From an uncultured Thermoleophilia bacterium (GTDB lineage Bacteria > Actinomycetota > Thermoleophilia > UBA2241): a stretch of DNA of 64,000 nt. Location of the stretch: NCBI GenBank assembly GCA_963702475.1, contig CAVPCT010000005.1, positions 192,001 through 256,000 on the forward strand, read 5' to 3'. Under the pieces are notes generated by a model that saw only the letters and a list, made by a program, of their open reading frames with translations, had not been told where the DNA came from and made no database searches. Below, piece by piece: positions 10,162 through 64,000 of the stretch (the first letter of the stretch is position 1; each line of letters begins with the position of its first letter). Position numbers and translations under genes: made by a program.

Positions 10162-10171
10162 TCTACCTCTC

Positions 10172-10205
10172 CGGAGGACGGCGGGTCGGAGCCCGCCGTC
10201 CTCCG
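10172..10205 (-). terminator. GC-rich hairpin between a gene stub and the DUF2779 start
   Basis: 14-bp stem CGGAGGACGGCGGG/CCCGCCGTCCTCCG. Confidence 0.5.
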
Positions 10206-10212
10206 AAGGGTC

Positions 10213-10300
10213 TCAGCGCTTCACGATGACGGTGGCGGTCGCCGTCGCGTACCCGTCCTTCGTCACGGTGATCGCGATCTTGCCGGCCTTGGCAACCGCC
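10213..10300 (-). pseudogene. 3' stub of a secreted Ig-like/surface protein
   Basis: AVAKAGKIAITVTKDGYATATATVIVKR-stop with coding-like codon use but no start. Confidence 0.4.
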
Positions 10301-10361
10301 CTGCGCCCGCCCGGACACCGGGCATACAATCGGAGCGCACGCCAGCTCCCCGGGAGGTCCC

Positions 10362-11099: not shown

Positions 11100-11152
11100 G
11101 CAGGGCGGGGCCCGGCCGTGAGGCAGAGGGTGCGCTCCGGTAGAATCAGGTC

Positions 11153-11449
11153 ATGACCCGCCGAGAAGCGCTCCGGCGCATCAACCGCAACCAGGACAAG
11201 CTGCGTGCGATGGCCGTGCGGCACATCGCCGTGTTCGGTTCCACCGCCCGCGACCAGGCCACCCTCCACTCGGACGTCGACCTCCTGGTGGAGTTCGAGG
11301 CCGAGGCGCACGTGGGGCTGTTCGCCTTCGTGCGCCTCCTGGATTTCCTGGCCGACGTCATGGACACGCGCATCGACCTGGCGACACCCGACGCGCTGCG
11401 CCCCGAGATGCGCGACGAGATCCTGCAGGAGGCCGTCCGTGCCTTCTGA
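11153..11449 (+). CDS. minimal nucleotidyltransferase antitoxin (MntA-like)
   Basis: FGSTARDQATLHSDVDLLV is the GS-x10-DxD motif. Confidence 0.9.
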   Translation: MTRREALRRINRNQDKLRAMAVRHIAVFGSTARDQATLHSDVDLLVEFEAEAHVGLFAFVRLLDFLADVMDTRIDLATPDALRPEMRDEILQEAVRAF

Positions 11450-11843
11450 GCCTCCGGCCGCGCCCGACCGCCGGCACGCGGCCCACCTGGAGCGAGAGAC
11501 CCGGCTCAAGTTCCGCGACTGGCGCTTCCGCGTGCGCGACATCCTCACCGCCGTCAGGGCCGTCGGCGCCTACACCCGGGGCATGACGTACGAGGAGTTC
11601 TGCGCCGACCAGCGCACCGTCGATGCCGTCGTCCGCAACCTGATGACCATGGGCGAGTCCATCCGCTGGATTCCCGAGCCCGTCCTCGACGACCACCCCG
11701 AGGTCCCGTGGCGGGTGATGCGCGCCGTGCGCAACGTGGTGGTGCACGAGTACTTCGGCATCGATTCACGCATCCTCTGGGCCACGGTGCAGCACGACCT
11801 GCCCCCGCTGGTGTCCAGGCTGGAGACCGTGCTGGAGTCGTAG
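11439..11843 (+). CDS. HEPN/DUF86 ribonuclease toxin (HepT-like)
   Basis: DAVVRNL..GE, RNVVVHEY (R-x4-H followed by Tyr); overlaps the MNT gene. Confidence 0.9.
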   Translation: MPSEPPAAPDRRHAAHLERETRLKFRDWRFRVRDILTAVRAVGAYTRGMTYEEFCADQRTVDAVVRNLMTMGESIRWIPEPVLDDHPEVPWRVMRAVRNVVVHEYFGIDSRILWATVQHDLPPLVSRLETVLES

Positions 11844-11882
11844 GCTTGCCGCCTGCGGCCGCCCGCCCCCTCCGACCCACCT

Positions 11883-12506
11883 CTACTTGAGCCTGAAGCT
11901 CAGGTCGGCGACGGCGAAGACCGTGGTCGTGTCGATCGTCCCCACGAGCGCCGACTGCAGAGCGACGGCGAGCTGAGGCGTGAGCCGGAACTGCGCGCCG
12001 CGGACGACGACCTGCTTGCCCGTCTTGAGATACCGCGCGCCATTGGCCGACACCATCACGTCGGCGCGCGTCACCGGCGCCCCGCCGATGGCGGCGTTCA
12101 GCACGATGCTGGAGGGCCCGTCGACGCGGGCCCGCAAGCCGGTCAGCGGCAGGGAGGCGCCGGTGGCGACGTTGACGAAGCGGAGGCCGCCCTTGTGCAC
12201 GAGCGTCCCCCGCCTGGCCGCGGGGTCGAAGCTGCCGCCGGCCGCCATGGGCACGCGGAACGACCAGCTCAGGGCGCCGTCCCACAGAAAGCGGAAGGTC
12301 GCCGGCGGCACGTCGATCACGGCGACGTCCTGCGCGGTGAGCGCCGCGACACGGGCGCCGGGCACCGTGAGCGTCGTCGCTCCGCTCACGACCTTCTGCC
12401 TGCCGGCGAAGGCGGGGCAGGCCCACAGCAGCAGCACGGTCACGGCTGTCGCGCCCAGCGCGACCGCCCTGACGGCCCGTCCTCGACTCGCGTGTGCACA
12501 GACCAT
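11883..12506 (-). CDS. secreted beta-rich protein, HtaA-like
   Basis: Signal peptide ending AFA; GTLVHKGGLRF segment resembling HtaA-like domains. Confidence 0.55.
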   Translation of the reverse strand: MVCAHASRGRAVRAVALGATAVTVLLLWACPAFAGRQKVVSGATTLTVPGARVAALTAQDVAVIDVPPATFRFLWDGALSWSFRVPMAAGGSFDPAARRGTLVHKGGLRFVNVATGASLPLTGLRARVDGPSSIVLNAAIGGAPVTRADVMVSANGARYLKTGKQVVVRGAQFRLTPQLAVALQSALVGTIDTTTVFAVADLSFRLK

Positions 12507-12676
12507 GCCGCCTCCCGTCGTCTTCGCCGTCCCTGGATGGCGGGTGCCCCCACGGTGCACCCCTAGCTGAGGCCTCGTCCGTCGCTCAGCGAGCGCCGCG
12601 GGCGTTCCGCCGCCCACGGCGTATACAATCGCACCTGTCCGCGGCGTCCGGTCCGCGGCCCGCAAGGAGTCCCCCG

Positions 12677-13674
12677 GTGCAGCCAGGCCCTTACGAGCAC
12701 GTCCAGTATGCCACGCTGGGCTGGAGAGCCGCTGCGGTCCTGGTGGACACGCTCATCGTCCTCGTGGTGTCGTCCGTCGTCCTGGCCCTGCTCATGGCCT
12801 TCGGCGTGTTCGACATCGGCTTCAGCGGCACGCCCACGTTCGACGAGATCGTGGACGTGAGCCGCTCCGCACCCGGGTGGATCACGCTGCTCGAGTACGG
12901 CCTCGTCTTCGTGTACTTCACGCTCTTCGAGCTCAGAGGGACCACCCCGGGCAAGCGCATCTTCAAGCTCAACGTGCTGACGGAGGAAGGCGCGCGCCCC
13001 TCTCCGGGTGCGGTGGTCGTCCGTAACGCCGTCCGCATCCCCGAGATGTACCTGCTGTACATCCCATCGGCCGTGTCGTGCGTCGTGAGCAGCCGCCGCA
13101 AGCGACTGGGCGACTACGCCGCGCGCACGGTCGTGGTCCGTCGCGTCACCTCACCCGTGCCGGTGCGCGCCGGCGGCTGGCCGCAGGCGTCCGCGCCGGC
13201 GCCTCCGGCACCCGCGCCGCCGCGCCGCCGGCGCCGCCGGCGGTACCGGACGCGGCGACGCCGGCCACGGCGGCGGCCGAGGACGTGACGCCGCCGGCCG
13301 GGCCACCACCGCTCGACGAGGCCGTGGCCGACCTGCGGAGCGCCGCGCTCGCGGTGCTCGGCGCACACCACCTCTACCTCAGGTTCTCGGAAGTGGAGCT
13401 GGCGAGAGGCGGCGGCGAGCACGCGGAGCTCTCCGATGAGTACGCCGCCGCCTGGTACTCCCTGGCCGACACCGTGATCGCCCTGCAGCAGGCCCACGCC
13501 GTCGCGCAGCAGGCCGCGGCGCGCGACGGCACCACGCTGCAAGCCGCGTGCGCCGGCCAGGCCGACCTGTCGCACCTCTTCCGCGAGCTCGAGCCCTACT
13601 TCACGGCCGGGTCCGACGACGAGGTGCACGAGGCGTATCTGCGGGTCGCCCGCGGGGAGACCCGGGACACCTGA
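12677..13674 (+). CDS. RDD family membrane protein with Pro-rich linker and helical C-terminal domain, frameshifted at ~13225
   Basis: YATLGWRAAAVLVD...TPGKRIFKL...RLGDYAARTVV; AAGGAG RBS; the C-terminal domain continues in another frame after a CCG-rich tract. Confidence 0.75.
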
Positions 13675-27072: not shown

Positions 27073-28245
27073 TCAGGAGCAGCGGACAATGCCGCGCGCC
27101 CACAGGCAGTCGCCGCACGTGGGGTGCGGGTTGCCGAAGCAATCCTCTTCGTTGGTCTCGGCCAGTTCGCACGCGCAGTCGGTGCACGGCGGGAAGTCGA
27201 AGCGGTGCACGCGCTCGCGGAAGGCGGCGTAGGCGGGCCTGGCCCGCACCGCCGCCAGACGCTCCTCGGGCAACGCGCCCACCTGCCACTTGGTCATCCG
27301 TTTCTCACGGCCGCGCACGAAGCAGGTGTAGCTGTGCAGCAGCGGAGGACACGGGCTGACTCCGCCGTGCCACGCCACCGCGCACGCGTCCGCGTACACG
27401 AAGGGACAGCGGCTGCGGGTGGTCTCCGGGCCGGAGCCGAAGAAGGACACCGGCCCGGACTGCGTGAGCGCGCGGCCGAGCGCCGCCCCGAGCTGCTCGT
27501 CCCAGTCGAACGCGGGCAGCTGCCATCGAGGGGCCGCCGTGGTCTCGGCGCCCGCGAGTGAGCCCGCGTGCCGGTCGTACAGCGTCTCATCGAGCAGCTC
27601 GGGCGTGTACGCGAGCACGTTGCTGACGATGACGAAGCTAGCGCCCAGCTGAGCCGCGAGCCGGCCGAGCCCGGGCAGCTCGCCGATGTTGGAGCGCATC
27701 GCCACGAATTCCACCCCGATGCGCATGCTCGGGCCGTAGTTCGGGCCGCGCAGGTCGTTGAGCCGGCGCACGTTGGCCACGACACGCTCGAGGGAGGCGC
27801 CGGACCGCACGCGTCCGAAGCTCTCTGCGGTCGCGCCGTCGATGCTCACCACGAGCTGGTCGAGCCCGGCGCTCAGGAGGCCGGCGCCGAGGACCTCGTC
27901 GAGCAGCAGGGCGTTGGTGGTGACCTCCACGCGCAGACCCCTCTCCTTGGCCAGACGCACCATGTCGAGGAAGCGCGGGTGCAGAAGCGGCTCGCCCAGC
28001 CCCATGAACGCGACCGTCCCCGGCGTGCGCGCGGGACCGTCGGCCGGCTCGGCCGCCGCGCCGGCGCGGGCCGGCAGGGCGGCCGTGGCCTCCTCGAGTC
28101 CGTCGACGACCGCCTCGTAGGTCGACCACGCCATGTGCCCCTCGGGTTCGTCCCAGGCGTGGCGCACGCAGGTGGTGCACGCCAGGTTGCAGGCGTTGGT
28201 CGGCTCGACGTAGACCTTGCGCAGGTCGTCCCGGAACGTGGTCAC
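27073..28245 (-). CDS. radical SAM/SPASM protein, tungsten-cofactor oxidoreductase maturase-like
   Basis: CNLACTTC, GLGEPLLHP, Cys-rich C-terminus FPPCTDC..C...DCFGN...CGDCLWA.GIVRC. Confidence 0.8.
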   Translation of the reverse strand: MTTFRDDLRKVYVEPTNACNLACTTCVRHAWDEPEGHMAWSTYEAVVDGLEEATAALPARAGAAAEPADGPARTPGTVAFMGLGEPLLHPRFLDMVRLAKERGLRVEVTTNALLLDEVLGAGLLSAGLDQLVVSIDGATAESFGRVRSGASLERVVANVRRLNDLRGPNYGPSMRIGVEFVAMRSNIGELPGLGRLAAQLGASFVIVSNVLAYTPELLDETLYDRHAGSLAGAETTAAPRWQLPAFDWDEQLGAALGRALTQSGPVSFFGSGPETTRSRCPFVYADACAVAWHGGVSPCPPLLHSYTCFVRGREKRMTKWQVGALPEERLAAVRARPAYAAFRERVHRFDFPPCTDCACELAETNEEDCFGNPHPTCGDCLWARGIVRCS

Positions 28246-51870: not shown

Positions 51871-52191
51871 TCAGGTCCTGAACATGGTGAGGAGGAACAC
51901 GAGCTCCTCGCGCGCCCGCACCGCGTGCTTCAGCTCGGCCGGCATGTAGTGCAGCTTGCCCGGGCCGGCCTCGTGCTCGACGCCGTCGAGCACCACCGAG
52001 CCGGCCCCGCGCAGCACGTGGATCACGGCCGGCACGCTGGCAGTGTGCTCACTCAGCTCTTGTCCGGGCGCGAGCGTGAACAGGATGATCTTGTGGTGGT
52101 CGTTCTCCACCACCGACTTGCTGACGATGCCCTGGTCGGCTAGCTGCGTCATCTGCTCCAGGTCCACGACCACCGGGTTCGATCCGTCCAT
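51871..52191 (-). CDS. cupin domain protein
   Basis: GQELSEH...HAVRA. Confidence 0.85.
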   Translation of the reverse strand: MDGSNPVVVDLEQMTQLADQGIVSKSVVENDHHKIILFTLAPGQELSEHTASVPAVIHVLRGAGSVVLDGVEHEAGPGKLHYMPAELKHAVRAREELVFLLTMFRT

Positions 52192-52302
52192 CGATGCCTC
52201 CGACTCACGGGGATTGCCTGTCTCGAAACCTACCCATCGGAGGCCCCACCGAACTTGACCTTCGTCAGGGCGTCTGCCCCCACCCTGCTCCCCTTCACGA
52301 GT

Positions 52303-52348
52303 TTGACAGCCGCACGGTGCGGGGATACACTTTGTGACGGTCATCACA
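52303..52348 (+). promoter_or_regulatory. sigma70 promoter with overlapping CRP/Rex-type operator
   Basis: TTGACA(52303)-17-TACACT(52326) followed by TGTGA-CGGTCA-TCACA (52333-52348). Confidence 0.8.
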
Positions 52349-52376
52349 GAAGCTCTTATTTTTGAGGAGGGTCGCC

Positions 52377-52511
52377 ATGACGAATCCATTCGCAACACTC
52401 AAGCGCCTGTTCGATGGCTCGCCGGACGTCGGGGGCTCACCTCAGTCTTCCGCGCGACGAGTCGAGAAGAATTTCATGAAGTACGACCTCACCGTCGATC
52501 CGCGGTTCTGA
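52377..52511 (+). CDS. small protein 1 (44 aa) MTNPFATLKRLFDGSPDVGGSPQSSARRVEKNFMKYDLTVDPRF
   Basis: GAGGAGG RBS 6 nt before ATG, consensus promoter upstream. Confidence 0.7.
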   Translation: MTNPFATLKRLFDGSPDVGGSPQSSARRVEKNFMKYDLTVDPRF

Positions 52512-52527
52512 GAGAGGAGGCACCACA

Positions 52528-52668
52528 GTGAACTCAAGCGTCTTCCGCTCCATCGGCAGGTTCCTGGCCGACGCCGCAGAGGCCATCGGCACACCGTCGG
52601 GCGACACCCGAGGTCATGTGCGCGTCTACTCCCTCGACCGCAAGGTGGGTCGCGGCCGCAACTTCTGA
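52528..52668 (+). CDS. small protein 2 (46 aa) MNSSVFRSIGRFLADAAEAIGTPSGDTRGHVRVYSLDRKVGRGRNF
   Basis: GAGGAGG RBS 7 nt before GTG, directly after protein 1, terminator downstream. Confidence 0.68.
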   Translation: MNSSVFRSIGRFLADAAEAIGTPSGDTRGHVRVYSLDRKVGRGRNF

Positions 52669-52718
52669 GATATCTACTGGCTGCCGGCGATCTCCCCCAG
52701 CCGCCGACGGCATCCTTC

Positions 52719-52781
52719 AGGGCCTCCCGCCTCCTGACCCGGCCCCAAGACGTCAGGAAACCAGGCGGGAGGCCTTCTCTT
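52719..52781 (+). terminator. intrinsic terminator after small proteins 1-2
   Basis: GGCCTCCCGCCT/AGGCGGGAGGCC stem with inner CCTGAC/GTCAGG, then TTCTCTT. Confidence 0.65.
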
Positions 52782-52922
52782 ACCGGCCGCTGGACCCACC
52801 GCGATGGTCGACGTGCAAGCGCGGACCGGACGCAGTTCGGACAAGCCCAGACGCCAGACTCCGTGCGGGGTCGTCCCGGCAACAAGTCGGGAGCTTGACA
52901 AGCGCGACCGCGGCTCGCGTGT

Positions 52923-52968
52923 TTGACGTAGTGGTAGTTATGGAATACACTCTGTGCTCAACTTCACA
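52923..52968 (+). promoter_or_regulatory. second sigma70 promoter with overlapping CRP/Rex-type operator
   Basis: TTGACG(52923)-17-TACACT(52946) followed by TGTGC-TCAACT-TCACA (52953-52968), same geometry as 52303. Confidence 0.75.
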
Positions 52969-52998
52969 ATCAATACTCTTTAATCGGAGGAGATGGTC

Positions 52999-53154
52999 AT
53001 GAGCAGCCTCGGTCGCATGTTCGACAAGATCTTCTTCGGCGGCGGCCGCTCGGATGAGGTCTCCCAGACCGTGTCCCAGCCGTCGCCCGTCGCCCGCCCC
53101 GGCGTCGAGGACCGCGCCCGCTACGACAGCGGCACGTCGATCTACTACCACTGA
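52999..53154 (+). CDS. small protein 3 (51 aa) MSSLGRMFDKIFFGGGRSDEVSQTVSQPSPVARPGVEDRARYDSGTSIYYH
   Basis: GGAGGAG RBS 6 nt before ATG, own promoter and terminator. Confidence 0.7.
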   Translation: MSSLGRMFDKIFFGGGRSDEVSQTVSQPSPVARPGVEDRARYDSGTSIYYH

Positions 53155-53206
53155 CGCCCGCGCCGGCGCGGAGATCAGTCCTCGCCGGCGACTGACTGGT
53201 ATGACG

Positions 53207-53252
53207 AGACCCCCGGGCTCTCGACTTCTGCGAGTCGAGAGCCCGGGGGTCT
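53207..53252. terminator. bidirectional terminator
   Basis: 20-bp perfect stem AGACCCCCGGGCTCTCGACT between convergent units. Confidence 0.75.
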
Positions 53253-53347
53253 GTCTCGTTCCAAGGACAGCCGGCCAGAGCCGACGTGCTCTGCGACCGG
53301 CGGGAAGTGCTCCCGTTCCAGGACAGCCGGCCCGAGCCGGCGGGTCC

Positions 53348-54664
53348 TCAGACCGGCCGAAAGTACGCCGGATACGTGCGCGGCTTGGACTTCTTGCGCC
53401 GATACGTGTGCGCGAGCTCCAGAAAGATGCCGACGTCGCGCTCCAGGTCGCCCTGGGTACCGTCGAAGTAGAAGACCCTGATGGGCATGTTGTCGAGCTC
53501 TTTGGCCAGACTGGGATAGACGGCCTCGGTGACGATGCCGTTCATGCAGGTGAACGGGCTGATGTCGATGATGCCGTCGGCGCCCTTACCGTACAGATAG
53601 ATGGACTTGCCGCTGCTCAGCACCATCTCTCCCAGCGCCCCGGTGTACGGGAGGTACGGCTCGCTCAGCTCGAGCACCTGACCCACGTCCTCCGGCTCCT
53701 CATAGCCCACGAAGTCGTCGTGGAACGGGCCGTACAACGCGTGCTCGTCGCTGCGCATGATCCTGCTCTTGAGGTACCGGTAGGCGTTGTCCTTGGAGAA
53801 GCGCCGCTTCTGCTCGATGAGCCGGCGGCGCTGCTCGTCGTCGGTGTACCAGACCCACTCGCCGATATCGGCCAGCCAGCACTCCCCGCCCTGCTCCTCT
53901 ACCACGCGGATGAGGTCGAAGTTGGAGAAGGTGTTCTGGCGGCAGAAGATCTCGCCGACCACACCGATGAGCGGCCGCGAACGATCGTAGGCGCACGGGA
54001 TGGCGCGGAACCTGTCGCGGGCGCGCTGCATGGCCGGCAGGATCGCGGCCATGCGCTCCTTGTGCGACACGCCGTTGCTGCTGATCGCGTCACCCACCTC
54101 TACCAGACACTGCTGGTAGACCTCGTCGGTACTGCCCTTCTCCAGCTCGTACGGACGCGTCTTGAGCAGGAGCTTCATGAGGATGTCCTGCGCGAGCACG
54201 GCCCGCCACGCGGTGCGGATGAGGTCGCTGGAATAACTGCCGATGGACGAGTAGCCGTCGCTCGACGTGATGGTGATGACCGGCACGTCGTCGTATCCCA
54301 GTTCGCGGAACTTGGCGTTGACCAGGTGAAGGTACTGGCCGAAACGGCACGGGCCGTTGGCCGTGGGCATGAGGAAGGCGACGTTCTCCCGTCCCTCGTC
54401 CTCGATGATGCGCAGGAAGTCGCCGATGGTGATCTTCTGCGGGTAGCACTCGTCACCGGACGTCACTCGCCCACCGAGGTCGAGCGTGCGCTCGTCCGAG
54501 TCACTTGTGGGCCACGCGTCGAAGCCGATGGAGCGGATGGCGGCGGCGAGCAGGTACGTGCCGCCGTAGGGCATCTGCGGCAAGTAGAGCTTGCGTCCCT
54601 CCAGGCCGAAGTCCTTGATGGCCTGCTTGATGCGCTCGTCCTGTTTGACGCTACTTGAGGGCAC
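53348..54664 (-). CDS. 2-hydroxyacyl-CoA dehydratase-like reductase subunit (PlsR-like)
   Basis: GDECYP, GPCRFGQY, IGVVGEIF, PFTCMNG; overlaps the upstream activator gene. Confidence 0.8.
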   Translation of the reverse strand: MPSSSVKQDERIKQAIKDFGLEGRKLYLPQMPYGGTYLLAAAIRSIGFDAWPTSDSDERTLDLGGRVTSGDECYPQKITIGDFLRIIEDEGRENVAFLMPTANGPCRFGQYLHLVNAKFRELGYDDVPVITITSSDGYSSIGSYSSDLIRTAWRAVLAQDILMKLLLKTRPYELEKGSTDEVYQQCLVEVGDAISSNGVSHKERMAAILPAMQRARDRFRAIPCAYDRSRPLIGVVGEIFCRQNTFSNFDLIRVVEEQGGECWLADIGEWVWYTDDEQRRRLIEQKRRFSKDNAYRYLKSRIMRSDEHALYGPFHDDFVGYEEPEDVGQVLELSEPYLPYTGALGEMVLSSGKSIYLYGKGADGIIDISPFTCMNGIVTEAVYPSLAKELDNMPIRVFYFDGTQGDLERDVGIFLELAHTYRRKKSKPRTYPAYFRPV

Positions 54665-57600
54665 CTGCCACCTCCTCTTCCGGCGGGGCGCAGAGATGCT
54701 CGCGTTCTTCTCCCGCCTGCGACCACCAGCGCAGGAAGCCCTTGCTGTCCAGGTACGCCTCGCAGCGCGTCATCGCGCCGGCGTCGTTCTGGTGCTCGTC
54801 GAACTGCAGGGTGAGGTACGGCTTGCCGGAGGCCTCGCGCACGTAGTGCTTGATGTACGAGTCCGGGCCGCACTTGAAGTTGGTCATGTAGATGAGGTGC
54901 AGATGATCCTTGCCGTGCACGAACGTCGCCGCCTGCAGGATCTTGCGCCCGTAGTTCCAGTACATGTTGGGCACGATCGGGTTGATGTCGATGCCCTTGA
55001 TGGGCAGGAAGTCGAGCGGTATCAAGTTGACCCCGTAGAACTTGCGAAGCTTGCGCGGGATGTCCATGTTGATGCCCTTGTCGTACATGTTGTACGGGCG
55101 CCCTATGAGCACGATGCCGAGCTCGCCGGAGCGCTCAAGGGTCGCAAGCGCCTCGTGGCCGGCCTTCTGCAGGGCGGCGCGGAACTCATCCTGGGCCACG
55201 AAGGCGCGGTCGAGTGCCGCGCGCAGACGACCCTTGCCCACGCCCAGCTGGGCGGCCATGCCGGCGAGGTCACGCACGAGGCCTTCCCGGCCGTCGCGGA
55301 ACATGACGCGCGGCGCGAGGAACCTGTGCTTGTACTGCTCGAGCGCCGGCGCCTGACGGACGACGAACGGCAGGGTCTGCCCCCAAGGACACGCGTGCGA
55401 GTTGTACTGCATGAACTCGCTCTCCTCGTTGACCTGGTTGGGCACGAAGACCCAGTCAACGCCCTCTCGCAGCAGCCACTGCGCATGCCCGTGGGCCACG
55501 CGGATGGGGAAGCAGGGCTCGGCCACGGTGAGGTCGACGCCGGCCTCGCGGATCTGCTTGTCGCTCTCCGGCGAGAGGACGGGGCGGTGGCCCAGCTCGG
55601 CGAAGAACGTCGCCCAGAACGGCAGCCTGTCGTAGGTGTACATGGCACGCGCCAGGCCGACCGTGGGCGCCGTCTCGGGCAGCCTGGCTCGCGCCGCCTC
55701 GTAGGGCGCCATGAGCTGCTGCTGGCGGAAGGCGATGAGGTCGGCGATCACGGGCTCCTTGTCCACCTTGGCGGGCTTGCGGTACCTGTCGGAGCACTTG
55801 TCGCCCCAGTAGGTCTTCTGGCCCTCGATGGTGAACTGGCGCACGTCGCACTCGTTGGAGCAGGCGTGGCAGACGAAGTCGACCACGGTGTAGTCCACCT
55901 CGCCCAGGTCCCATCCGCGGAACGTGCTCGGCTCGCCGGTGCGCTGCACGCGCTCGCGAGCCAGCAACGCCATGCCCAGCGCGCCCATGACGCCGTTGTA
56001 CGGCGGCACGATGATCTCCTTGTCCAGGATCTGGCTGAAGGCCGCCGCGACGGCGTCGTTGTAGGCCGTCCCCCCCTGGAAGAAGATCGTGTCGCCGACG
56101 GTGCGCTCGCGCACCAGGCGGTTGAGGTAGTTGGTGGCGATGGAGAAGGCGAGGCCGCCCACCAGGTCGTCGCGGCGCGCGCCGCGCTGCTGATAGGCCA
56201 TCACGTCGCGCTCCATGAACACGGTGCAGCGCTCGCCGAGACGGACGGGCGCCTGAGAGCTCAGCGCCAGCTCCGCGAACTCGCCGATGATGTTGATGCC
56301 GAGCTTCTCGGCCTGCTCTTCCAGGAAAGAGCCGGTACCCGCCGCGCAGGCCTCGTTCATGGCGAAGTCGACGACGATGCCGTCCTGCAGGCTGATGAAC
56401 TTGGAGTCCTGGCCGCCGATCTCGAAGATGGTGTCTACCTGGCGGCCGATCTTGCGCCCGATGAAGTCGGCGCCCGTCTTGTGGGCGGTGATCTCGTCGG
56501 TGATGATGTCGGCCCCGCAGAGCTCGCCGATGAGCTCGCGTCCCGAGCCGGTGGTGCCCACACCAAGCAGGTTGAGGCGCGGGCCGATCTCGGCGTAGAT
56601 GTCGTGCAGGCCCTTGGTGACGACCTCCACGGGCCGCGCGTCGGTCTTGGTGTAGATCTCCTTGATGACGCGCCCCTCGTCGTCGACGACGACGAGGTTG
56701 GTGGACACGGAGCCGATGTCTATGCCCATGTACGCGTCGACGACCCCGACGTCGTCGGCGAACGTGAACGGCTCGGCCATGTCGCGCAGGAGCGTGACCT
56801 TGGCCATGGAGAGCGGCTCCGTCACGGGGAAGTCGGCCGCCGGGAGGCGGCTGGCGTCGAGCGACGCCAGCTCCGCCCGGGCCGACTCGTACTCGGCCTC
56901 GATGAGCGCGGCGCCGACGGCGCCGAGCGCCGCGTGATAGTCGGGGATGAAGAGATCGCCGGGCTCGAGGTCGAAGGCCTCCTGGAGCGCCTGCACGGCG
57001 CCCTTGTTGGCCGCCACCCCGCCGATGAAGGCGATGGGCGGCTCCACGACCTTGCCCTTGGCGATGGTGCCCTTGAAGTTGCGCATCACCGCGTCGCACA
57101 GCCCCCGGAGCACCTCGGGCGGCTGATAGCCCTTCTGCTGGGCGTGGATCATGTCCGACTTGGCGAACACGCTGCAGCGCCCGGCGATGCTGGCCGCCTT
57201 GCCGGCATCGAGCACGATGTCGCCGACATCCTCGATGTCGTAGAGGAGGCGGCTCGCCTGCTGGTCCATGAAGGAGCCGGTGCCGGCGGCGCAGTCGCCG
57301 TTGGTCTGGTAGTCGGTGATGCCGTGACAGCGGGTCTCCTCGTCGGGCTCGAGCCTGATGAACTTGGACGTCTCGCCGCCCATCTCGAAGATGGTGCGCG
57401 TCTGCGGCGCCAGGGCGCTGACCCCGCGGGTGATGGCCTTGAACTCGTTCTCGAAACTCGCCTCGAGCGCCTGGCCGATGAGGCGACCGCCCGAACCGGT
57501 GACGCGGACGCCCTCGATCTTGCCCTCAGGCAGGACGGCCAGGAGCTCGTCGAGCAGAGCCTGGGTCGCCTCCCCGGGACTGCCCTTGATTCGCCGGTAC

Positions 57601-57770
57601 TTCGCCACCAGGACCGGACGCCCGTCGACGACCGTGAGCCCGTCGGCGGGGTTCTCGAAGAGGTCGGGATGGCTTGCGAGGAGCTGGGTGTAGAGGTCGT
57701 GGTCTTCAGCCTCGCCGGCGAGGGCCGCTTTGAGGCTGATGCAGCCGATGTCGATGCCGAGAGAAGTCAT
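54651..57770 (-). CDS. acyl-CoA dehydratase activase with two BadF/BcrAD ASKHA domains plus DUF2229 (PlsA/Ger-like)
   Basis: GIDIG..S.K/ST twice, CAAGTGSF twice, GRCSVF/ERCTVF, C..C.N.C, CFP....HGH, FKCGPDS. Confidence 0.88.
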   Translation of the reverse strand: MTSLGIDIGCISLKAALAGEAEDHDLYTQLLASHPDLFENPADGLTVVDGRPVLVAKYRRIKGSPGEATQALLDELLAVLPEGKIEGVRVTGSGGRLIGQALEASFENEFKAITRGVSALAPQTRTIFEMGGETSKFIRLEPDEETRCHGITDYQTNGDCAAGTGSFMDQQASRLLYDIEDVGDIVLDAGKAASIAGRCSVFAKSDMIHAQQKGYQPPEVLRGLCDAVMRNFKGTIAKGKVVEPPIAFIGGVAANKGAVQALQEAFDLEPGDLFIPDYHAALGAVGAALIEAEYESARAELASLDASRLPAADFPVTEPLSMAKVTLLRDMAEPFTFADDVGVVDAYMGIDIGSVSTNLVVVDDEGRVIKEIYTKTDARPVEVVTKGLHDIYAEIGPRLNLLGVGTTGSGRELIGELCGADIITDEITAHKTGADFIGRKIGRQVDTIFEIGGQDSKFISLQDGIVVDFAMNEACAAGTGSFLEEQAEKLGINIIGEFAELALSSQAPVRLGERCTVFMERDVMAYQQRGARRDDLVGGLAFSIATNYLNRLVRERTVGDTIFFQGGTAYNDAVAAAFSQILDKEIIVPPYNGVMGALGMALLARERVQRTGEPSTFRGWDLGEVDYTVVDFVCHACSNECDVRQFTIEGQKTYWGDKCSDRYRKPAKVDKEPVIADLIAFRQQQLMAPYEAARARLPETAPTVGLARAMYTYDRLPFWATFFAELGHRPVLSPESDKQIREAGVDLTVAEPCFPIRVAHGHAQWLLREGVDWVFVPNQVNEESEFMQYNSHACPWGQTLPFVVRQAPALEQYKHRFLAPRVMFRDGREGLVRDLAGMAAQLGVGKGRLRAALDRAFVAQDEFRAALQKAGHEALATLERSGELGIVLIGRPYNMYDKGINMDIPRKLRKFYGVNLIPLDFLPIKGIDINPIVPNMYWNYGRKILQAATFVHGKDHLHLIYMTNFKCGPDSYIKHYVREASGKPYLTLQFDEHQNDAGAMTRCEAYLDSKGFLRWWSQAGEEREHLCAPPEEEVAGALK

Positions 57771-57862
57771 GGGTGAACGCGATGTACCTCCTGCGGGCGG
57801 AGCCCGCCTCGCCGACCCAGAAGCCTACCGTCGTCAACGGCCCCCGGCAAGCTGGCCTAAGA

Positions 57863-57891
57863 AGACTATCGCACTCCTGATTAACGGTCAA
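57863..57891 (-). promoter_or_regulatory. sigma70 promoter for the PlsA/PlsR-like operon
   Basis: Minus strand TTGACC-17-TAGTCT. Confidence 0.55.
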
Positions 57892-58060
57892 ACGACGGCC
57901 ACCACCTCCCGCACCTCGAACGTGCACCCGTTGACGGCCGAGATGTCACCCGTTCCCCGCCTCCGTGAGCCTGTTCGGGCCGGCTCCGGTGCCGGTACCC
58001 TGCGTGCACGACGCGCCGGCCGGCCGTCCCCGCACCTCACCTCGATCGCTGGGAGCACCC

Positions 58061-58852
58061 GTGAACGAATCGACCACGCTCACCAACCGCGAGCGCCGCG
58101 AGAACGTCGCCTTCCTGAGCCAGGCGTTCTGCGCTGCGCAACGGCAACCGGCCGACGTGCTCGACGTCGACGAACGCCAGCAGTTCGCCGCCGAGCCCTC
58201 CGGCCAGGCCCGGCTGTTCTTCAAGCTTCTCTGCTACGGCGCCCTGGCCGCGCAGCCGGCCCCCGAAGCTGTCGTCGACGCCGACTGGCGGCGCCTCGAA
58301 GCCGCCGGCGTCGTCGACGCCCTGTTCGACGATGGGTTCGACCTCAAGCGCTACGCGCTGGACCCGCCGGTGTCGCGCAACGACAGCAAGGGCAAGGTCA
58401 TCGACTTCGTGCGCCTCGCCGAGACGCGCGACACGTGGAGCCGCCTCCTGCCGCAGCCGGACGACCCCGACGTGGCCGTCGATGTGCTGCACGCGGCGTC
58501 CGGCGGCGCCCTCAAGTCGCGGGCCTTCTGGGCGGTGCGCGAGATGCGCCGCCACGAGCTCTGGCAGGACGAGGCCCTGGATCGCTACGCCTGCGTGCCC
58601 GACGGCCGCGTGCGCAAGCGCGCCGTGCGCATGGGCCTCATCGATCTGCCGGAGAAGGCCGACACGTTCGCCGACATGAAGGCCGTCTCGCGGGCGCTTC
58701 ACGCGGTGCTGCGCCTGGGCGAGGCGCCCCAGGATGCCTTCGACCTGCCCGTCAGCGCCGCCGACACTCGTTGCGAGGTCTGCGACGCGGCGCGCATGGC
58801 CGCCTGTCCCATCCCGCACTGCCGCTGGCGGCGCGAGCACGCCGGCGTCTGA
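58061..58852 (+). CDS. hypothetical protein, distant HhH-GPD/endonuclease III-like fold with C-terminal Cys cluster
   Basis: VPDGRVRKRAVRMGL resembles PvDvHv.rv..RlGl; C-terminal CEVC-x7-CP-x3-C; GGGAG RBS. Confidence 0.55.
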   Translation: MNESTTLTNRERRENVAFLSQAFCAAQRQPADVLDVDERQQFAAEPSGQARLFFKLLCYGALAAQPAPEAVVDADWRRLEAAGVVDALFDDGFDLKRYALDPPVSRNDSKGKVIDFVRLAETRDTWSRLLPQPDDPDVAVDVLHAASGGALKSRAFWAVREMRRHELWQDEALDRYACVPDGRVRKRAVRMGLIDLPEKADTFADMKAVSRALHAVLRLGEAPQDAFDLPVSAADTRCEVCDAARMAACPIPHCRWRREHAGV

Positions 58853-59119
58853 CGCCTGCAAAGCGCCCGCGACTGCGGCCCTCAGCGCCGAGCCGGCTCC
58901 TTCGGCCGGCGTAGAGCCGCAAACGGCGGCCGTGGCCGAACTGGGCCGCGGCTGCCGTTTGCCCGGCACGGCGGCGTCTGGGGGCTCTACCGGCGGCTGA
59001 GTCAGGTGAGCACCCCACCCCGCTCTGCTCCCGGCACCCTATGCTCGGCGTATCCAGCCTGGGAGATAACTAGAGCAGAGAGCCGAGTGGAGCGGCTCCG
59101 CTCGAGGAAAGGGGGCGAC

Positions 59120-59263
59120 ATGAGCCTGTGGGTGGTTCTCGCGTGGCTCGGCGTCGCCGCGATCACGATCCTCCGTATCGCGCTCGTGGTGGGGGTCATC
59201 GCCGTGGTCGTGCTCGTCGCACGCGGCGTCTGGCGCTACCACACCGCACAGCCGATGTCCTGA
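59120..59263 (+). CDS. small membrane protein (47 aa)
   Basis: AAAGGGGG RBS, one long hydrophobic stretch. Confidence 0.5.
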   Translation: MSLWVVLAWLGVAAITILRIALVVGVIAVVVLVARGVWRYHTAQPMS

Positions 59264-59306
59264 CGCGAGGGTCGTTCGCGCCGACCGCAGGCGTGCGGCC
59301 GGCGCT

Positions 59307-61794
59307 TCAGCGTGCCGTGAGCAGGGTCACACCGGGCACCTTCTGCGCGTTGCCGGACCTGTCGACTGCTGAGAACGTCAGCGTATACGCACCTGCCGCC
59401 GGCGCCTTCCAGGAGCACGTAGCCGTGGTCCCCTGCTTGACCCAACCCGGGGACAACGTCGTCAACTGCGTACCGGCGGCGTCGGTCACGCCGACGGTGA
59501 CCTTGACGGTCGCGCTGTAGGCGTCGCGGACGGTGTACGAGACCTTCGCGGTCTTGCCGGCCTTCACCGAGAGCGTCGAGGGCACCGTGAACTTCGGCGG
59601 CGTGAGGTCGACCGTGACCGGCACGCTGACGGCGCTGACGCCCTGGTTGCCGTCGGCCACGACCTTCAGGCGGTAGGCGCCGCTCACCGGCGCGCCGCCG
59701 CCCGACAGGGCACCGTCCCAGGCGGTGTTCTGGTCGCCCGCGGCGAGGGCGCCCAGATCGATGACCCTGACGGTCTCCTCACCCTTCAGCACGCGGACCT
59801 TCACGTCGGCCCGCCGCGTGAGCTTGAACGCCAGGGACGCCGCGTCCTTTACCCCGTCGCCGTTGGGCGAGAACGCCACCGGCTTGAGCACCGGGAACCC
59901 CAGCGTGCGGTCGACGGTCACACTGCGCCGCACGCTGTCGCTGTTCCCGGCCAGGTCGCGCATCTCCACGACGATGACGGTCTTGCCCTCGGGCGCGTCG
60001 ACAAGCTTGCCGTTGTCGTTCACGCGCCCGTCCCAGGAGACGGTCTTGCGCGCCGGGCCGATGCTGCGCCACGCGAGCACCGTGCGCACGACCCGGTCCT
60101 TGTCGTCCAGCACCGTGACCCGCGCAGTGCCGCTCTCGCCTGGCTGGAAGCTCACGCCGGCGACGTCGTCCTGGCCGTCGTCGTTGGGGCTGAAGGTGCC
60201 CGGCTCGACGGACGCGCTCTGGAGCTGCGGGGGCGTCGTGTCCACGCGCACGACCGCCGTCGCCGGCCGCGCGTCCCCGTGCCCATTGCCGGCGCTGAGC
60301 GTCAGCGTGTAGTCGCCATCCGGCACGATCCCGCCGTCGTTGTCGCGACCGGACCATGTGGTCTCCACCGCGGTGCCTGAGCCGCTCACACTGCGCACCA
60401 GGGCGTCGACCGCGTTGCGCACTTCAAGCTTCCAGTCGGCCTGCTCCGAGAGACGGCAGGTCAACGTGACCCCGTCGCGCACACCGTCGCCGCCGGGGCT
60501 GATGTACTCGTCGTCGAGATCGACGTCGTAGATCTTCGGCTGGCCCGTCGCCTCCACCGTCTTGCGGACGCCCGGAAGCAGCGCGTACAGCTTGTTGCCG
60601 GGGCACTCGGTGTAGTTGGCGTCGCGGTGGCCGGAGATCGCGGCGAAGCCGACCTTCTCGCCGCTGGAGAACTTCTCCCCGTAGCCGCACGTCAGCGTCG
60701 CCCGGCCCAGCGGGTCGATGTGGTGGACATCGAGCTTCCAGGCGAGGAGCGCCTCGAGCGCGCGCACCGAGACGGTGGTGGGCGCCGCCTTGCTGTACGT
60801 GCCGATCACCGACACGCCCACACTCCCCGTGTTGAAGCCCAGCACCTGCGCGCCGATCACGCCCTTCGTGATGCCACCGGACCGGCCCTCGTAGATGGTG
60901 CCGTACCGGTCGATGAGGAAGTTGTAGCCGATGTCGCTCCAGTGCAGCGAGCGCGTGTGGTAGTAGTACGCGCCGCGGACGACCGACGCCGCCTCGCCGC
61001 GCCCGTAGTCGTTGCCGCTGGCGGTGTGGTGGACGAAGGCCATCGTGGGGGTGGCGTAGTCCGGGGAACCGGTGCGGTACGACTCGTCGGCGCCCCACTC
61101 TTCGCGAGTCACGATCGCCGGCTTGTCGGTCATGGCCGCCGCCGGCGGAGCAAGCTGGAGACCGGCGATCGCGGCGACAGTGCGGCGCAGCACGCCGAGC
61201 ACGGTGGCGCCGGCGTCGGCGCGCTCGGTGCTGTCGATGGCCACCACGCGCACGTCGCGGAGGGCGGCCGGCGCAGCGGAGCCGTCCGCCGGCCGGGCCG
61301 CGATCTGCACGAAGCGCCCCGGACCCGTCCACAAGGCCTCGGTGAACGCCTGTGGCCTGCCCGCATCGCCGTCGGCCTGCACGTCCAGCGAAGTCGTGTA
61401 CCAGCGGCTCCAGGCGTCGCCGTCGAGGCTCGTGCGCAGATCGACGAGCACGCCGTCTGCGTGCTCGGGCACTGCGCACGTGACTCCGAGCATCGTGAAG
61501 CGCAGTCCCGCGTCGAGCGTGACGGCGGCAGCGCGCGGCGGGGGTAACACCGGCGCTTGCGGGCGCCGTCGCGTCATCCCGTACCGCCGCGCGTGCGCGA
61601 GGGACCGCCTGCTCCAGCGTGAGCCCGCCGGCGACCTGCAGCGTGGCCGCGTGTACCTGTGGCGTGCGCAGCCACGCGGCCACCGCGTCGCTCACGCGCG
61701 GCGCGCACCAGAGCGCGGCGAGCGCCGCCGTGAAGGTGAGGATGGAGACGGCCGCCGCACAGGCGACCCGCTTGTGGGATCGAGGTCTCGCCAT
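59307..61794 (-). CDS. N-acetylmuramoyl-L-alanine amidase (PGRP-like) with FlgD Ig-like domains, frameshifted at ~61540
   Basis: FVHHTA, WSDIGYNFLID, GHRD...CPG; repeated SPNGDG..D and W.G.....G FlgD-Ig motifs; signal peptide in another frame from ATG 61794. Confidence 0.85.
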
Positions 61795-62015
61795 GTCGGT
61801 TCCGGCAGACGTCAGCTTCGACAGGGTAGCACGGAATCCCCCGGGCACCGACCCGGCGGCCGTGAGTGGAGCGGCCACCGGCGGTGCGCCTCGAGGGCGT
61901 CCTGCCCCGCTGCCCAAGGAACGGACGGGGGCCGGAGCCCCTCAAGGGACGGCGGGCGGCGGGGCGCTCATGCGCCCCGCCGCCCGCCGGACCGCGCAAG
62001 TCCGAAGCCGCCGCG

Positions 62016-63437
62016 TCAGGAGACGGGTGCCTTCTCTTTGCGCGTCGCCTTGCGGATGGTGTTGGTGCGCGCCGGCGTCTCGGCCGGTTCTTCCTTCTCC
62101 GCACTCAGACAGCTCCAGATGGGGCTGTAGAGGTGGTCGACGGCGCTGGCATACTGGTCCAGCTCGTCCTGAAGGTCGGTGATCATGACGTCCCCGCCGG
62201 GGTGCGTGGGCTTCGCGCCGGTGGCGGCCACGATCTCACGCGCCTGCGTGGGATTGTCGATCCACATGCAGGGCATGAGCAGGTTGTGGTTGAACGGCTG
62301 CCGCGCGCGGATCTCCCGGAAGAAGTCCGAGTTGAACGCCTCGAGGAGGCTCACGTCGTGGATGTTGTCGGTGGCGAAGTGCGTGAAGATGCACGGCTCC
62401 ACCCAGCCGCCGCTGTTGATGTGCATGTAGTGCTTGCCGGCGATGCAGCCGTTCACCCAAGGAGCGTCGCCCCAGAAGTCGATCGGGAAGATCGGCTTGG
62501 TGTCGCGGATACGGTGGATGTCGATGCGGAACTGGTTCCGCTCCTCCGCCGTCAGCATCAGGCTGGTGTCGGGATCGCGACCCACCGGCATGTAGAGGAA
62601 ATGCCAAGCCAGCATGGCGCCCTTGGCGACGAGCGGGTCGATGAACTCGTCGCTCACTATGGCCTTCCACGTGTTGCGCGTCACCGTGCACGAGTAGCCG
62701 AACAACACGCCGGCCTCGCCCAGGTGATCCATGATCTCCATGACCTGGTCGTGTACGCCTTCGCCGCGACGCTGATCGGTGAGCTCCGGGGAGCCCTCGA
62801 GACTCAGCATGGGGGCGATATTGCCGATACGGGCCAGCTCGTCGATGGTGTCATGATCGAGAAGCGTGCCGTTGGTGAACACCTGGAAGTAGGCGTCCTT
62901 GTTCTCCTTGGCGAAGTCGAGCAGCTCGTCCCACATGAACGGCTCGCCGCCGAGCATGGTGAACAGGTAGACACCCATGTCGTTGCCCTCGTCCACGATC
63001 TTCTGCATCAGACGGCGGTCGAGGTCCTGGTCCATCTTGTATTCCGATGCGTAGCAGCCCTCACAGGTGAGGTTGCAGCGCATGGTGGGGCTCATGAGGA
63101 TCGTCGTCGGCGCATTGCAGCCCGTCGTGTCGATCAGTTCACGCCTCTTTGCCACGCCGCGAAGAAGAGTATTAACGATAAGACATTCGATGAAGCGGTC
63201 GCGGCAGCGCGGGCTGAGTCGGCTGGTGACGTGCTTGGCGATGGTGAGCGCCGGGTGGTCGTCCTGCACCTTCTCTGTGACGAAACGTACTGAGCCCTTG
63301 TACTGGTCGGGCGTGATCTTCTCCGCCAGGTTGAACGCCTTGACGATCTTGGTCTTGTCGTCGCTGGCGGCCAGCTTGAGCATCTGATTGACCACTTGCC
63401 TCTGTACCGTAGTGTAGAGGCCGTCCGTCCGGCTCAT
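62016..63437 (-). CDS. radical SAM protein (COG0535-like, resembles the membrane-spanning lipid synthase Mss family)
   Basis: CNLTCEGC, GGEP, FTNGTL, DFWGD...GCIAG..YMHIN..G.VEPC, PFNHNLLMPC..IDNP; AAGGAGG RBS. Confidence 0.85.
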   Translation of the reverse strand: MSRTDGLYTTVQRQVVNQMLKLAASDDKTKIVKAFNLAEKITPDQYKGSVRFVTEKVQDDHPALTIAKHVTSRLSPRCRDRFIECLIVNTLLRGVAKRRELIDTTGCNAPTTILMSPTMRCNLTCEGCYASEYKMDQDLDRRLMQKIVDEGNDMGVYLFTMLGGEPFMWDELLDFAKENKDAYFQVFTNGTLLDHDTIDELARIGNIAPMLSLEGSPELTDQRRGEGVHDQVMEIMDHLGEAGVLFGYSCTVTRNTWKAIVSDEFIDPLVAKGAMLAWHFLYMPVGRDPDTSLMLTAEERNQFRIDIHRIRDTKPIFPIDFWGDAPWVNGCIAGKHYMHINSGGWVEPCIFTHFATDNIHDVSLLEAFNSDFFREIRARQPFNHNLLMPCMWIDNPTQAREIVAATGAKPTHPGGDVMITDLQDELDQYASAVDHLYSPIWSCLSAEKEEPAETPARTNTIRKATRKEKAPVS

Positions 63438-63754
63438 TGATCTCCTCCTTTCACGCTTCTCCGCGCCCGTGCTCGGCGGACGCGAGGTTATCGGCCTCGT
63501 GGAGACCACGGTGAGGGGACGAGACGACGCAGCGTACTGCCGCTTGCCTCGGGACACCGGCTCCCCCCGGTGGTCTTCGAGCAACCATGCCCGACATCCT
63601 ATCACCCTCGCAGCGGGTGACGAAGGCTTTCGTGGTGTTGGGCACACTCTACTCCAGCGTCCCGGCCCCGCACGTCGGCCGTGCTGGCAACACTTCACTG
63701 GGACATTCGTCTATACGGCCCTCATGTTCATCGCGCATGCGGCCGATACCGCCT

Positions 63755-63835
63755 ATCGACAAAGGCAAACCTGTCGTGAGGCAGGGACGCAAAGCCAGAG
63801 GTCTTGAAGTGCTCAAGATAGCTCGGTTGCCGGTT
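63755..63835 (+). ncRNA. c-di-GMP-I (GEMM-I) riboswitch
   Basis: GGCAAAC-CTGTC-GTGA-GGCAG-GGACGCAAAGCC...TCTTGA/TCAAGA..TAGC..GGTTGCCG matches P1-P2-P3 with a GNRA loop. G at the Vc2 G20-equivalent position indicates c-di-GMP rather than cGAMP. Confidence 0.9.
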
Positions 63836-63962
63836 CTGACCAGCTCCGCGATCGCGGATGTCTTCGTCTGCCTTCAACCCCTGGCCGCCGTTCCCGCCTC
63901 ACGTCTGAGCTGAGTCCACCGGGCGCCGCCGGACGCGCCCTGGAGACAGAGGGGGTACCGCA

Positions 63963-64000
63963 GTGAAGGCCAGACTCAGATGCGTCAGGTGGCTGCTCCT
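63963..64000 (+). CDS. start of a gene downstream of the riboswitch (truncated, signal-peptide-like)
   Basis: GAGGGGG RBS, GTG AAG GCC AGA CTC AGA... basic then hydrophobic. Confidence 0.35.
   Translation, partial: MKARLRCVRWLL

Follow-up and report, generated by a model that had tools for sequence, protein, structure and literature searches.

Does the genome of an uncultured Thermoleophilia bacterium carry a locus for ether-bound lipids that span the membrane? The question is raised by positions 53348 to 63437 of a 64,000-nucleotide stretch of contig CAVPCT010000005.1, where a gene pair for proteins of 1039 and 438 amino acids lies near a gene for a 473-amino-acid radical S-adenosylmethionine (SAM) protein. 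The whole stretch is called the window below (G000:C5:192001-256000 in our numbering). A sequence-only reading had compared the pair with the anaerobic plasmalogen synthase PlsA/PlsR and with Ger, which reduces glycerol esters, had placed the radical SAM protein with Mss, an enzyme that joins fatty-acid tails, and had proposed all of them as one candidate locus. On balance, we lean toward two independent units for anaerobic-type membrane-lipid chemistry, namely a split member of the PlsA/PlsR-Ger group and an Mss-family radical SAM protein. What was observed covers gene structure, domains and conserved ligand residues, the small subunit's fold, membership of the families by proxy, and the patterns of phyletic occurrence and synteny.

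The source assembly comprises 4.3 Mb in 9 contigs, with 93.8% completeness and 6.5% contamination, and for two window proteins the nearest named homologues come from Thermoleophilia metagenome-assembled genomes (MAGs). The GC content of the window is ~0.70, and third-position GC (GC3) was used to sort genes from the many spurious open reading frames (ORFs) of such high-GC DNA. Five genes remained in the region after sorting (Table 1). All three ORFs of the sequence-only reading were recovered at their positions with a coding-type GC3 of 0.85-0.93, and the radical SAM gene, described as lying 4 kb away on the same strand, is indeed on that strand, with 4,245 bp between it and the beginning of the 1039-amino-acid gene.

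The 1039-amino-acid protein was identified by two family collections. Pfam returned BcrAD_BadFG (PF01869) in two stretches with 239.3 bits and DUF2229 (PF09989) at residues 703-921 with 189.7 bits, and the NCBIfam model TIGR00241, acyl-CoA dehydratase activase, was reached in two stretches with 276.8 bits against a cut-off of 125.4. These matches confirm the two ASKHA activator domains plus DUF2229 that had been read from the sequence, and the protein has the BBD core, i.e., two BcrAD_BadFG domains followed by DUF2229. In an alignment of eight proteins (the window's, two from a sister family and five clostridial ones), 11 cysteines were kept in all eight: C160, C199 and C475, C515 in the ATPase domains, C634, C637, C641 and C659 in the linker, and C753, C794 and C967 in the DUF2229 domain. 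In the corresponding locus of genome G056 (L013, G056:C5, positions 9715-12826) the BBD gene occupies two overlapping adjacent frames, for residues 1-584 and 585-1031, reflecting either a frameshift or an assembly error.

The 438-amino-acid protein, whose ORF starts with GTG and shares 14 nt with the end of the 1039-amino-acid ORF, matched no Pfam and no NCBIfam family at E ≤ 0.01, the weak match to DUF2229 (E 0.072) being the only one, and no PDB sequence at E ≤ 1. Its gene is conserved, with 4506 relatives at E ≤ 0.001 among 8000 candidates scored. An AlphaFold2 model calculated from a 14-sequence alignment reached a predicted local distance difference test score (pLDDT) of 82.9 and a predicted template modelling score of 0.86. 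In a Foldseek search with this model, the listed ranks to 17 (E 3.7e-8 to 1.1e-4) contained only three enzyme types: a double-cubane cluster protein, (R)-2-hydroxyisocaproyl-CoA dehydratase and the benzoyl-CoA reductase BzdNO/MbdON. The rows below rank 17 were unrelated isomerases at E ≥ 2.4e-3. Because the modelled fold matches the catalytic subunits of 2-hydroxyacyl-CoA dehydratases (HAD), benzoyl-CoA reductases (BCR) and double-cubane proteins, the protein is dehydratase-like. This part of the earlier description thus stands, on the fold and the homology to a fused tail described below, although the protein is invisible to the family scans. Cys73, Cys106 and Cys373 are invariant in 14 of the 14 aligned sequences. 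By analogy with HgdC/HadBC and the dehydratases, we take the conserved cysteines of both subunits to be Fe-S ligands.

The genome encodes a second DUF2229 protein, a fused BBD-type protein of 1488 amino acids on contig C1 (L004:3752-8218, + strand), located beside histidinol dehydrogenase and matching BcrAD_BadFG with 136 bits and DUF2229 with 86 bits. Residues 138-1040 of this paralogue align with the 1039-amino-acid protein (30% identity, E 4e-76) and residues 1074-1460 with the 438-amino-acid protein (23% identity, E 1e-12). The window pair is therefore a split version of the fused architecture. For comparison, we searched the genomes of Clostridium ragsdalei P11, C. ljungdahlii ERI-2, C. 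paridis, C. ihumii AP5 and Sinanaerobacter chloroacetimidivorans, each of which contains exactly one full-length fused protein (1428-1433 amino acids). These proteins share 30-31% identity with the 1039-amino-acid protein (E 1e-115 to 1e-122), and their C-termini share 22-25% with the 438-amino-acid protein (E about 1e-24 to 1e-26). The C. ragsdalei protein scored 397 bits at 31% identity with the window pair and 172 bits at 21% with the 1488-amino-acid paralogue, whose identity to both the window pair and the clostridial Ger/PlsA homologues reaches only 21-30%. Being far nearer to the C. ragsdalei protein, the window pair is the better Ger/PlsA counterpart of the two. The supplement of PMC13274423 lists one Ger homologue each for C. 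ragsdalei P11, C. ihumii, Sinanaerobacter and every C. ljungdahlii strain, and two accessions for C. paridis, one from GenBank and one from RefSeq, at a cut-off of E ≤ 1e-30 and >30% identity; a published criterion for Ger homology is E ≤ 1e-50 with at least 30% coverage against Thermotoga maritima Ger.

The clostridial genomes contain, in addition to the fused Ger/PlsA homologue, a separate paralogous set split over three genes (G121:C19:6277-9147 and G122:C64:44482-47352). It consists of a DUF2229-like ORF of 313-339 amino acids, a 371-amino-acid ORF resembling the 438-amino-acid subunit, and a single activase of 327 amino acids with 43% identity to the second ATPase domain of the window protein.

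Among characterized systems, PlsA/PlsR of C. perfringens (CPE1194/CPE1195) has a large and a small gene forming an operon in ~4.2-4.3 kb (PMC12838417), and the window pair occupies 4,423 bp. Both are members of the BCR/HAD family and have two activation and two reduction/dehydration modules. The C. perfringens genes are separated by a short non-coding gap whereas the window genes overlap, PlsA is a single gene in Enterococcus, Lactococcus and Bifidobacterium (PMC12838417) but split in the window, and the host, a high-GC actinobacterium-like MAG, differs from C. perfringens. With Ger, also called modified PlsA (T. maritima Tmari_0479, D. alkenivorans SHJ90043), the pair has the BBD core (2x PF01869 plus PF09989) in common; Ger, however, is fused into a single protein whose tail has short HGD-D (PF06050) matches, and the tail in the window is a separate protein without HGD-D. 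T. maritima Ger has the architecture BBDHDDH, and BBD is kept in all alkyl-ether producers while the tail varies (PMC13159169). Two B domains have been tied to alkyl-ether rather than plasmalogen formation (PMC13274423).

Could the pair instead be a paralogue that reduces or dehydrates something other than a lipid, for instance a CoA thioester or, as in double-cubane cluster proteins, a small molecule, and have nothing to do with ether lipids? A double-cubane cluster oxidoreductase (6eno, 7yzm) tops the fold matches of the small subunit, above dehydratase and benzoyl-CoA reductase, and the two subunits share only 31% and 22-25% identity with the clostridial Ger/PlsA homologues. The second BBD protein of the genome and the further short paralogous sets in Clostridia indicate, in addition, that the superfamily is functionally plural. 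Against this, no architecture other than a BBD core plus a second module, here with all ligand cysteines in place, has been shown to produce ether lipids (PMC13159169, section 10), the match in each clostridial genome is one full-length protein listed as a Ger homologue, and CoA-ligase, CoA-transferase or fermentation genes were not found beside the pair. We therefore regard a non-lipid role as rather improbable.

The start of the radical SAM gene, as previously read, is supported by the Shine-Dalgarno sequence GAAAGGAGG seven bases before the ATG at 63437 and by homologue lengths of 456-473 amino acids; a longer ORF of 560 amino acids was rejected because both features fit the 473-amino-acid start. 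Pfam recognized Radical_SAM, Fer4_12 and SPASM in the protein, which reached no NCBIfam model (best NirJ2, 76.5 bits against a cut-off of 500). The CxxxCxxC motif (C121, C125, C128) is present in 98-99% of 81 family members, and exactly six cysteines are near-universal in these sequences: those three core residues and C331, C349 and C390. The latter form a three-cysteine twitch-like site rather than a full SPASM set. The family is large, its cluster representatives numbering 11,753 at E ≤ 1e-3 and 540 at E ≤ 1e-30, and its full-length members having 430-520 amino acids and 30-51% identity. Within the genome the 473-amino-acid protein is the only strong member, with 531.9 bits compared to 79.6 for the next radical SAM protein.

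An assignment to Tes was rejected, as NF045702, whose cut-off is 450 bits, scored 20.8. The genome as a whole yielded no Tes homologue (best NF045702 score 48.2 bits). Like Tes/GDGT-MAS (MJ0619, PDB 7TOL/7TOM, NF045702), the protein combines a radical SAM core with a C-terminal Fe-S domain, but its family has only three conserved cysteines after the core and no rubredoxin-like part was seen. Another radical SAM gene of the window, a 469-amino-acid frame, has a weak NF045702 core match of 25.8 bits (27763-28209, - strand; G000:C5:219763-220209).

For identification with the Mss family, distribution and copy number served as proxies. The distribution scan took one genome per species and an alignment of five distant family members as query. 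The best 80 of 584 relatives came from Clostridia, Spirochaetes, Atribacterota, Omnitrophota, Planctomycetota, Armatimonadota, Chloroflexi, Desulfobacterales, candidate phyla, Woesearchaeota and one Methanosarcinales archaeon; Thermotoga and Thermoanaerobacter were not among these 80. Section 9 of PMC13159169 lists Mss homologues in essentially the same phyla, DPANN archaea included. In the five clostridial genomes, in the order given above, the 473-amino-acid protein had 3, 2, 1, 1 and 3 matches at E<1e-10, of which 3, 2, 1, 1 and 1 were strong and full-length (36-45% identity, E 1.5e-120 to 1.8e-89). For the same species the numbers of distinct Mss-homologue accessions in the supplement of PMC13274423 are 3, 2 per strain, 1, 1 and 1. 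A family member (L043) is also present in Syntrophomonas zehnderi, a species absent from that list, which requires Ger too; its genome contains short DUF2229 ORFs of 332-392 amino acids only and no fused BBD protein. The published criterion for Mss homology is E ≤ 1e-50 (or 1e-30) and at least 30% identity to Mss of Thermoanaerobacter ethanolicus or T. maritima. Judged by these distribution and count proxies, the 473-amino-acid protein very likely belongs to the Mss family; the earlier assignment to Mss thus fits the published set of Mss homologues, by indirect evidence. That it performs tail coupling is rated lower, at slightly less than an even chance, since many paralogues exist in the family and assays cover only two of its members.

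Mss itself (T. ethanolicus WP_129545148.1, T. maritima Tmari_0825) has the radical SAM CxxxCxxC motif, as does the window protein, and like the latter is not a Tes homologue (PMC13159169). For Mss, six conserved blocks and a hydrophobic stretch close to the C-terminus are described (PMC13159169, fig. S12). The window protein differs in belonging to an orthologue group with 60-87% identity that is specific to Thermoleophilia-type genomes.

The same family membership is compatible with a different task, e.g., another lipid or cofactor modification without tail-to-tail coupling. Two subgroups exist in this class, with 53-87% and 40-46% identity, some Clostridia have 2-3 family copies, relatives in one family of the class occur without the pair (see below), only two family members were ever assayed (PMC13159169), and the top NCBIfam matches, although weak, are of the NirJ2, mycofactocin maturase and AhbD types. 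The single copy in the genome, the retention of the six family-wide cysteines and the failure to reach any NCBIfam model, the best score staying at 76.5 bits against 500, argue in the other direction. We consider such another job somewhat unlikely.

The AlphaFold2 model of the radical SAM protein had a pLDDT of 72.1 and an all-helical N-terminal domain of ~105 amino acids (helices 10-105). A profile search of PDB sequences placed the protein nearest to SkfB (1.1e-17), SuiB and CteB, with GDGT-MAS at E 0.0022 (rank 17 of 31); GDGT-MAS was not among the matches listed by Foldseek for the model. The ESM Atlas returned generic names (anaerobic sulfatase maturase, PqqE, radical SAM), commonest in Bacillota. 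With SkfB, SuiB and CteB as the best PDB matches in sequence and fold, and with an S8 subtilase gene lying divergently upstream of the radical SAM gene, the protein might be taken for a SPASM-type maturase of ribosomally synthesized and post-translationally modified peptides (RiPPs), perhaps acting with this subtilase. However, the RiPP recognition element is a winged helix and the modelled N-terminal domain is unlike it, having five helices and no strands. Three rather than 7-8 cysteines are conserved after the core in the 81 family members, the 526-bp upstream gap contains a riboswitch and no plausible precursor ORF, the subtilase is absent beside the orthologue in locus L005, and the family is single-gene, occurring across phyla with changing neighbours. 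A role as RiPP maturase is thus very improbable.

Whether the pair and the radical SAM gene form one locus was addressed by a search of 121 genomes of the class, with thresholds of E ≤ 1e-30 for the radical SAM protein and E ≤ 1e-20 for the 438-amino-acid gene. The radical SAM gene was found in 43 of the 121 genomes, distributed over families f1 (17/20), f4 (14/20) and f6 (11/20), and in none of the seven other families sampled. The 438-amino-acid gene was found in 40 genomes, belonging to f1 (20/20) and f4 (19/20); it was absent from f6 (0/20) and from the seven other families sampled. That f1 and f4 carry both may simply be due to a low-oxygen lifestyle common to them. Counting that of the window, 11 genomes of f1 (G000, G002, G008, G020, G026, G032, G038, G056, G080, G098 and G116), spanning genera g1, g2, g3 and g5, have both genes on one contig and on the same strand, with 4.4-7.5 kb from the radical SAM to the 438-amino-acid gene. 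The two genes are on different contigs in the fragmented assemblies G062, G068, G074, G092 and G104 and in G044, and G014 has the radical SAM gene with a match to the 438-amino-acid gene of only 28%.

Gene order in the fetched f1 loci was radical SAM, an optional amidase, the opposite-strand 295-amino-acid gene, the BBD gene and the 438-amino-acid gene. The 756-amino-acid amidase, which combines Amidase_2 with domains of the FlgD-Ig, CHU_C-like and Big_13-like types, is present in the window's genome and in L013 (G056). It is missing from genomes G002, G038 and G098, and in loci L005, L006 and L007, which lack it, the radical SAM gene abuts the 295-amino-acid gene. The latter has a GC3 of 0.91, is divergent from the PlsA-like gene and keeps its position in all four of these loci. 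Its product had no Pfam match and is probably an AGOG/HhH-GPD-type glycosylase according to the nearest ESM Atlas clusters (score 0.94, a lead only). The wider backbone, e.g., permease and TrkA genes, is syntenic among f1 genomes as well.

One could read this neighbourhood as a single functional cluster in which the radical SAM protein and the pair produce ether-bound membrane-spanning lipids of the branched glycerol dialkyl glycerol tetraether (brGDGT) type. The same-strand arrangement across the four genera, the co-occurrence in f1 and f4, and a published pathway proposal that uses these same two families (PMC13274423) speak for it. On the other hand, the intervening genes are unrelated and one is on the opposite strand, and the linkage may be inherited order, the whole surrounding backbone being syntenic among these f1 relatives. 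The genes seldom keep company elsewhere: they are together in 0 of the 14 genomes of the sister family f4 that have both, lying 1.39 Mb apart on one contig in G106, and in other phyla, where flanks of up to 6 kb and often less were inspected, a BBD or 438-like gene is near the radical SAM gene in 2 of 80 loci (L038, L088) and missing from the other 78. A Tes homologue is missing as well (best 48.2 bits against 450), and known Ger acts at sn-1 only (PMC13159169, section 8), so a full tetraether needs more than these genes. We judge a single cluster unlikely. Because a glycosylase-like gene lies between them and the wider f1 backbone is syntenic, the adjacency of the radical SAM gene and the pair is best read as a gene order that was inherited and whose functional meaning is weak at most, the two being neighbours and not an operon. 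The earlier proposal of one functional locus is accordingly not supported, given separate transcription units, unrelated genes in between and a linkage limited to one family of the class.

The genome encodes heme-copper oxidase subunit I (541.6 bits, contig C3). Of 20 other f1 genomes, 11 have it at E ≤ 0.001, and the score exceeds the Pfam cut-off in 10; none of the three in the window's own genus has it. The oxidase of the window's genome could be foreign (6.5% contamination); that of G056 cannot, as it is on the same contig as the radical SAM/pair cluster, ~22 kb away. For comparison, mss is reported only in anaerobes in PMC13159169, in which respect some carriers of the window family differ, and facultative anaerobes use PlsA (PMC12838417).

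Returning to the reading as two lipid units, several observations weigh against it. HGD-D was not matched at E ≤ 0.1 in either the 438- or the 1039-amino-acid protein; the split PlsA/PlsR layout, the BBD core with a second module and the presumed ligand cysteines were recovered. Ger tails do vary, e.g., BBD or BBDD, so that HGD-D is not strictly required (PMC13159169), and diagnostic features of Ger are still to be determined (PMC13274423). The membership of both pair and radical SAM protein was judged by proxies in place of characterized references. Published homology cut-offs are loose and admit several paralogues per genome, e.g., three in C. ragsdalei, and homologues are noted in strains without such lipids (PMC13159169). 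The agreement in clostridial counts is limited to the strong class, as the weaker Sinanaerobacter matches (1.3e-47 and 5.3e-15) have no listed counterpart. In structural alignments with VIA-align, SkfB (Z 21.2), SuiB (19.2), anSME (18.4) and viperins (~17.8) score higher than GDGT-MAS (7tol; Z 16.0, root-mean-square deviation 3.9, 244 residues, rank 23), a comparison in which the auxiliary-cluster region is poorly modelled, with pLDDT <50 at residues 320-352; for Mss, PMC13274423 describes a catalytic architecture resembling that of Tes/GDGT-MAS. In f6, radical SAM relatives with 40-43% identity (11/20) occur without the pair (0/20), and the genes lie together in none of the 14 f4 genomes and in only 2 of the 80 other-phyla loci described above. 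Finally, a heme-copper oxidase is unusual in carriers of such oxygen-sensitive enzymes.

In the two-unit reading, which we still favour by a modest measure, the substrates, the products and any cooperation of the units are what we infer by analogy. The first unit, running from 57770 to 53348, would consist of two translationally coupled genes of the PlsA/PlsR-Ger branch of the benzoyl-CoA-reductase/2-hydroxyacyl-CoA-dehydratase superfamily. As in the superfamily, the tandem ASKHA ATPase domains would hold a bridging [4Fe-4S] cluster, and ATP hydrolysis would drive a low-potential electron into two three-cysteine Fe-S sites, located in the DUF2229 domain and in the 438-amino-acid subunit, respectively, where the sn-1 ester of a glycerolipid may be reduced to an alk-1-enyl (plasmalogen) or alkyl ether. 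The second unit, from 63437 to 62016, would be the single Mss-family radical SAM enzyme of the genome. Here, a 5'-deoxyadenosyl radical would take a hydrogen from the end of an acyl chain, and two chains might be coupled tail to tail via an open-site three-cysteine auxiliary cluster, yielding a membrane-spanning diacid lipid.

Table 1 Genes retained between positions 53348 and 63437 of the window, with the evidence for each assignment.
Feature	Position	Strand	Evidence
PlsR-like second catalytic-type subunit, 438 aa (putative)	53348-54664	-	alignment to fused relatives' tail, fold
PlsA/Ger-like BBD subunit, 1039 aa (putative)	54651-57770	-	Pfam, NCBIfam
Probable AGOG/HhH-GPD-type glycosylase, C-terminal Cys loop, 295 aa; neighbour, not pathway	57965-58852	+	GC3, ESM Atlas
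Amidase_2 + FlgD-Ig cell-wall protein, 756 aa; not pathway	59307-61577	-	Pfam
Mss-family radical SAM, 473 aa (very likely)	62016-63437	-	Pfam, alignments, AlphaFold2 model

A scan of 52800-64000 for promoters and terminators gave one promoter-like and three terminator-like sites, at or below the expectation from shuffled sequence. GC content is lower (0.63-0.68) at window positions 52000-58000 and 62000-64000, which hold the pair and the radical SAM gene, than in the flanks (0.72-0.73), with a first-codon-position GC of 0.58-0.66 in these stretches; amino-acid composition or acquisition from lower-GC anaerobes may account for this. The 526 bp that separate the radical SAM gene from the divergently oriented S8 subtilase gene contain a c-di-GMP-I-GGC riboswitch (RF03167; window 63755-63835, + strand; L003:1755-1835) with 71.2 bits against a gathering threshold of 59 (E 2e-15), which faces the subtilase. 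The subtilase gene extends past the window end (63963-65627, + strand; L003:1963-3627; Peptidase_S8 154.7 bits), and the C-terminal tail of its product is an unusual Trp/Lys/Tyr-rich run of KYKWT-type repeats (WTKYKWTKYKWT...).

The producers of branched GDGTs, which serve widely as proxies of past climate, are only partly known. The working model of PMC13159169 and PMC13274423 points to bacteria with both Mss and Ger homologues, and both families, their proposed joint role and their co-occurrence, including in Actinobacteria, have been published (PMC13159169, sections 9 and 10). Our literature search found no pairing of Thermoleophilia with 'glycerol ester reductase', although the trees (data S1/S2) and the PDF supplement of PMC13159169 may already hold such sequences, and, among the papers listed, did not find Thermoleophilia alongside brGDGT or Mss. 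The gain is incremental, because Actinobacteria are already listed with both homologues and the presence of homologues is no guarantee of the lipids. What the window adds is a Thermoleophilia-type lineage among the carriers of Mss and Ger homologues, and a single-copy set for heterologous expression, comprising one Mss-family gene, one split Ger/PlsA pair and no Tes. It is a speculative and rather unlikely prospect that the uncultured Thermoleophilia of f1 and f4, with a fixed neighbourhood in f1 and some facultative aerobes among them, are unrecognised producers of ether-bound, membrane-spanning lipids, i.e., precursors or analogues of brGDGTs. If this were true, those carriers with an oxidase would be facultative aerobes using enzymes so far tied to anaerobes.

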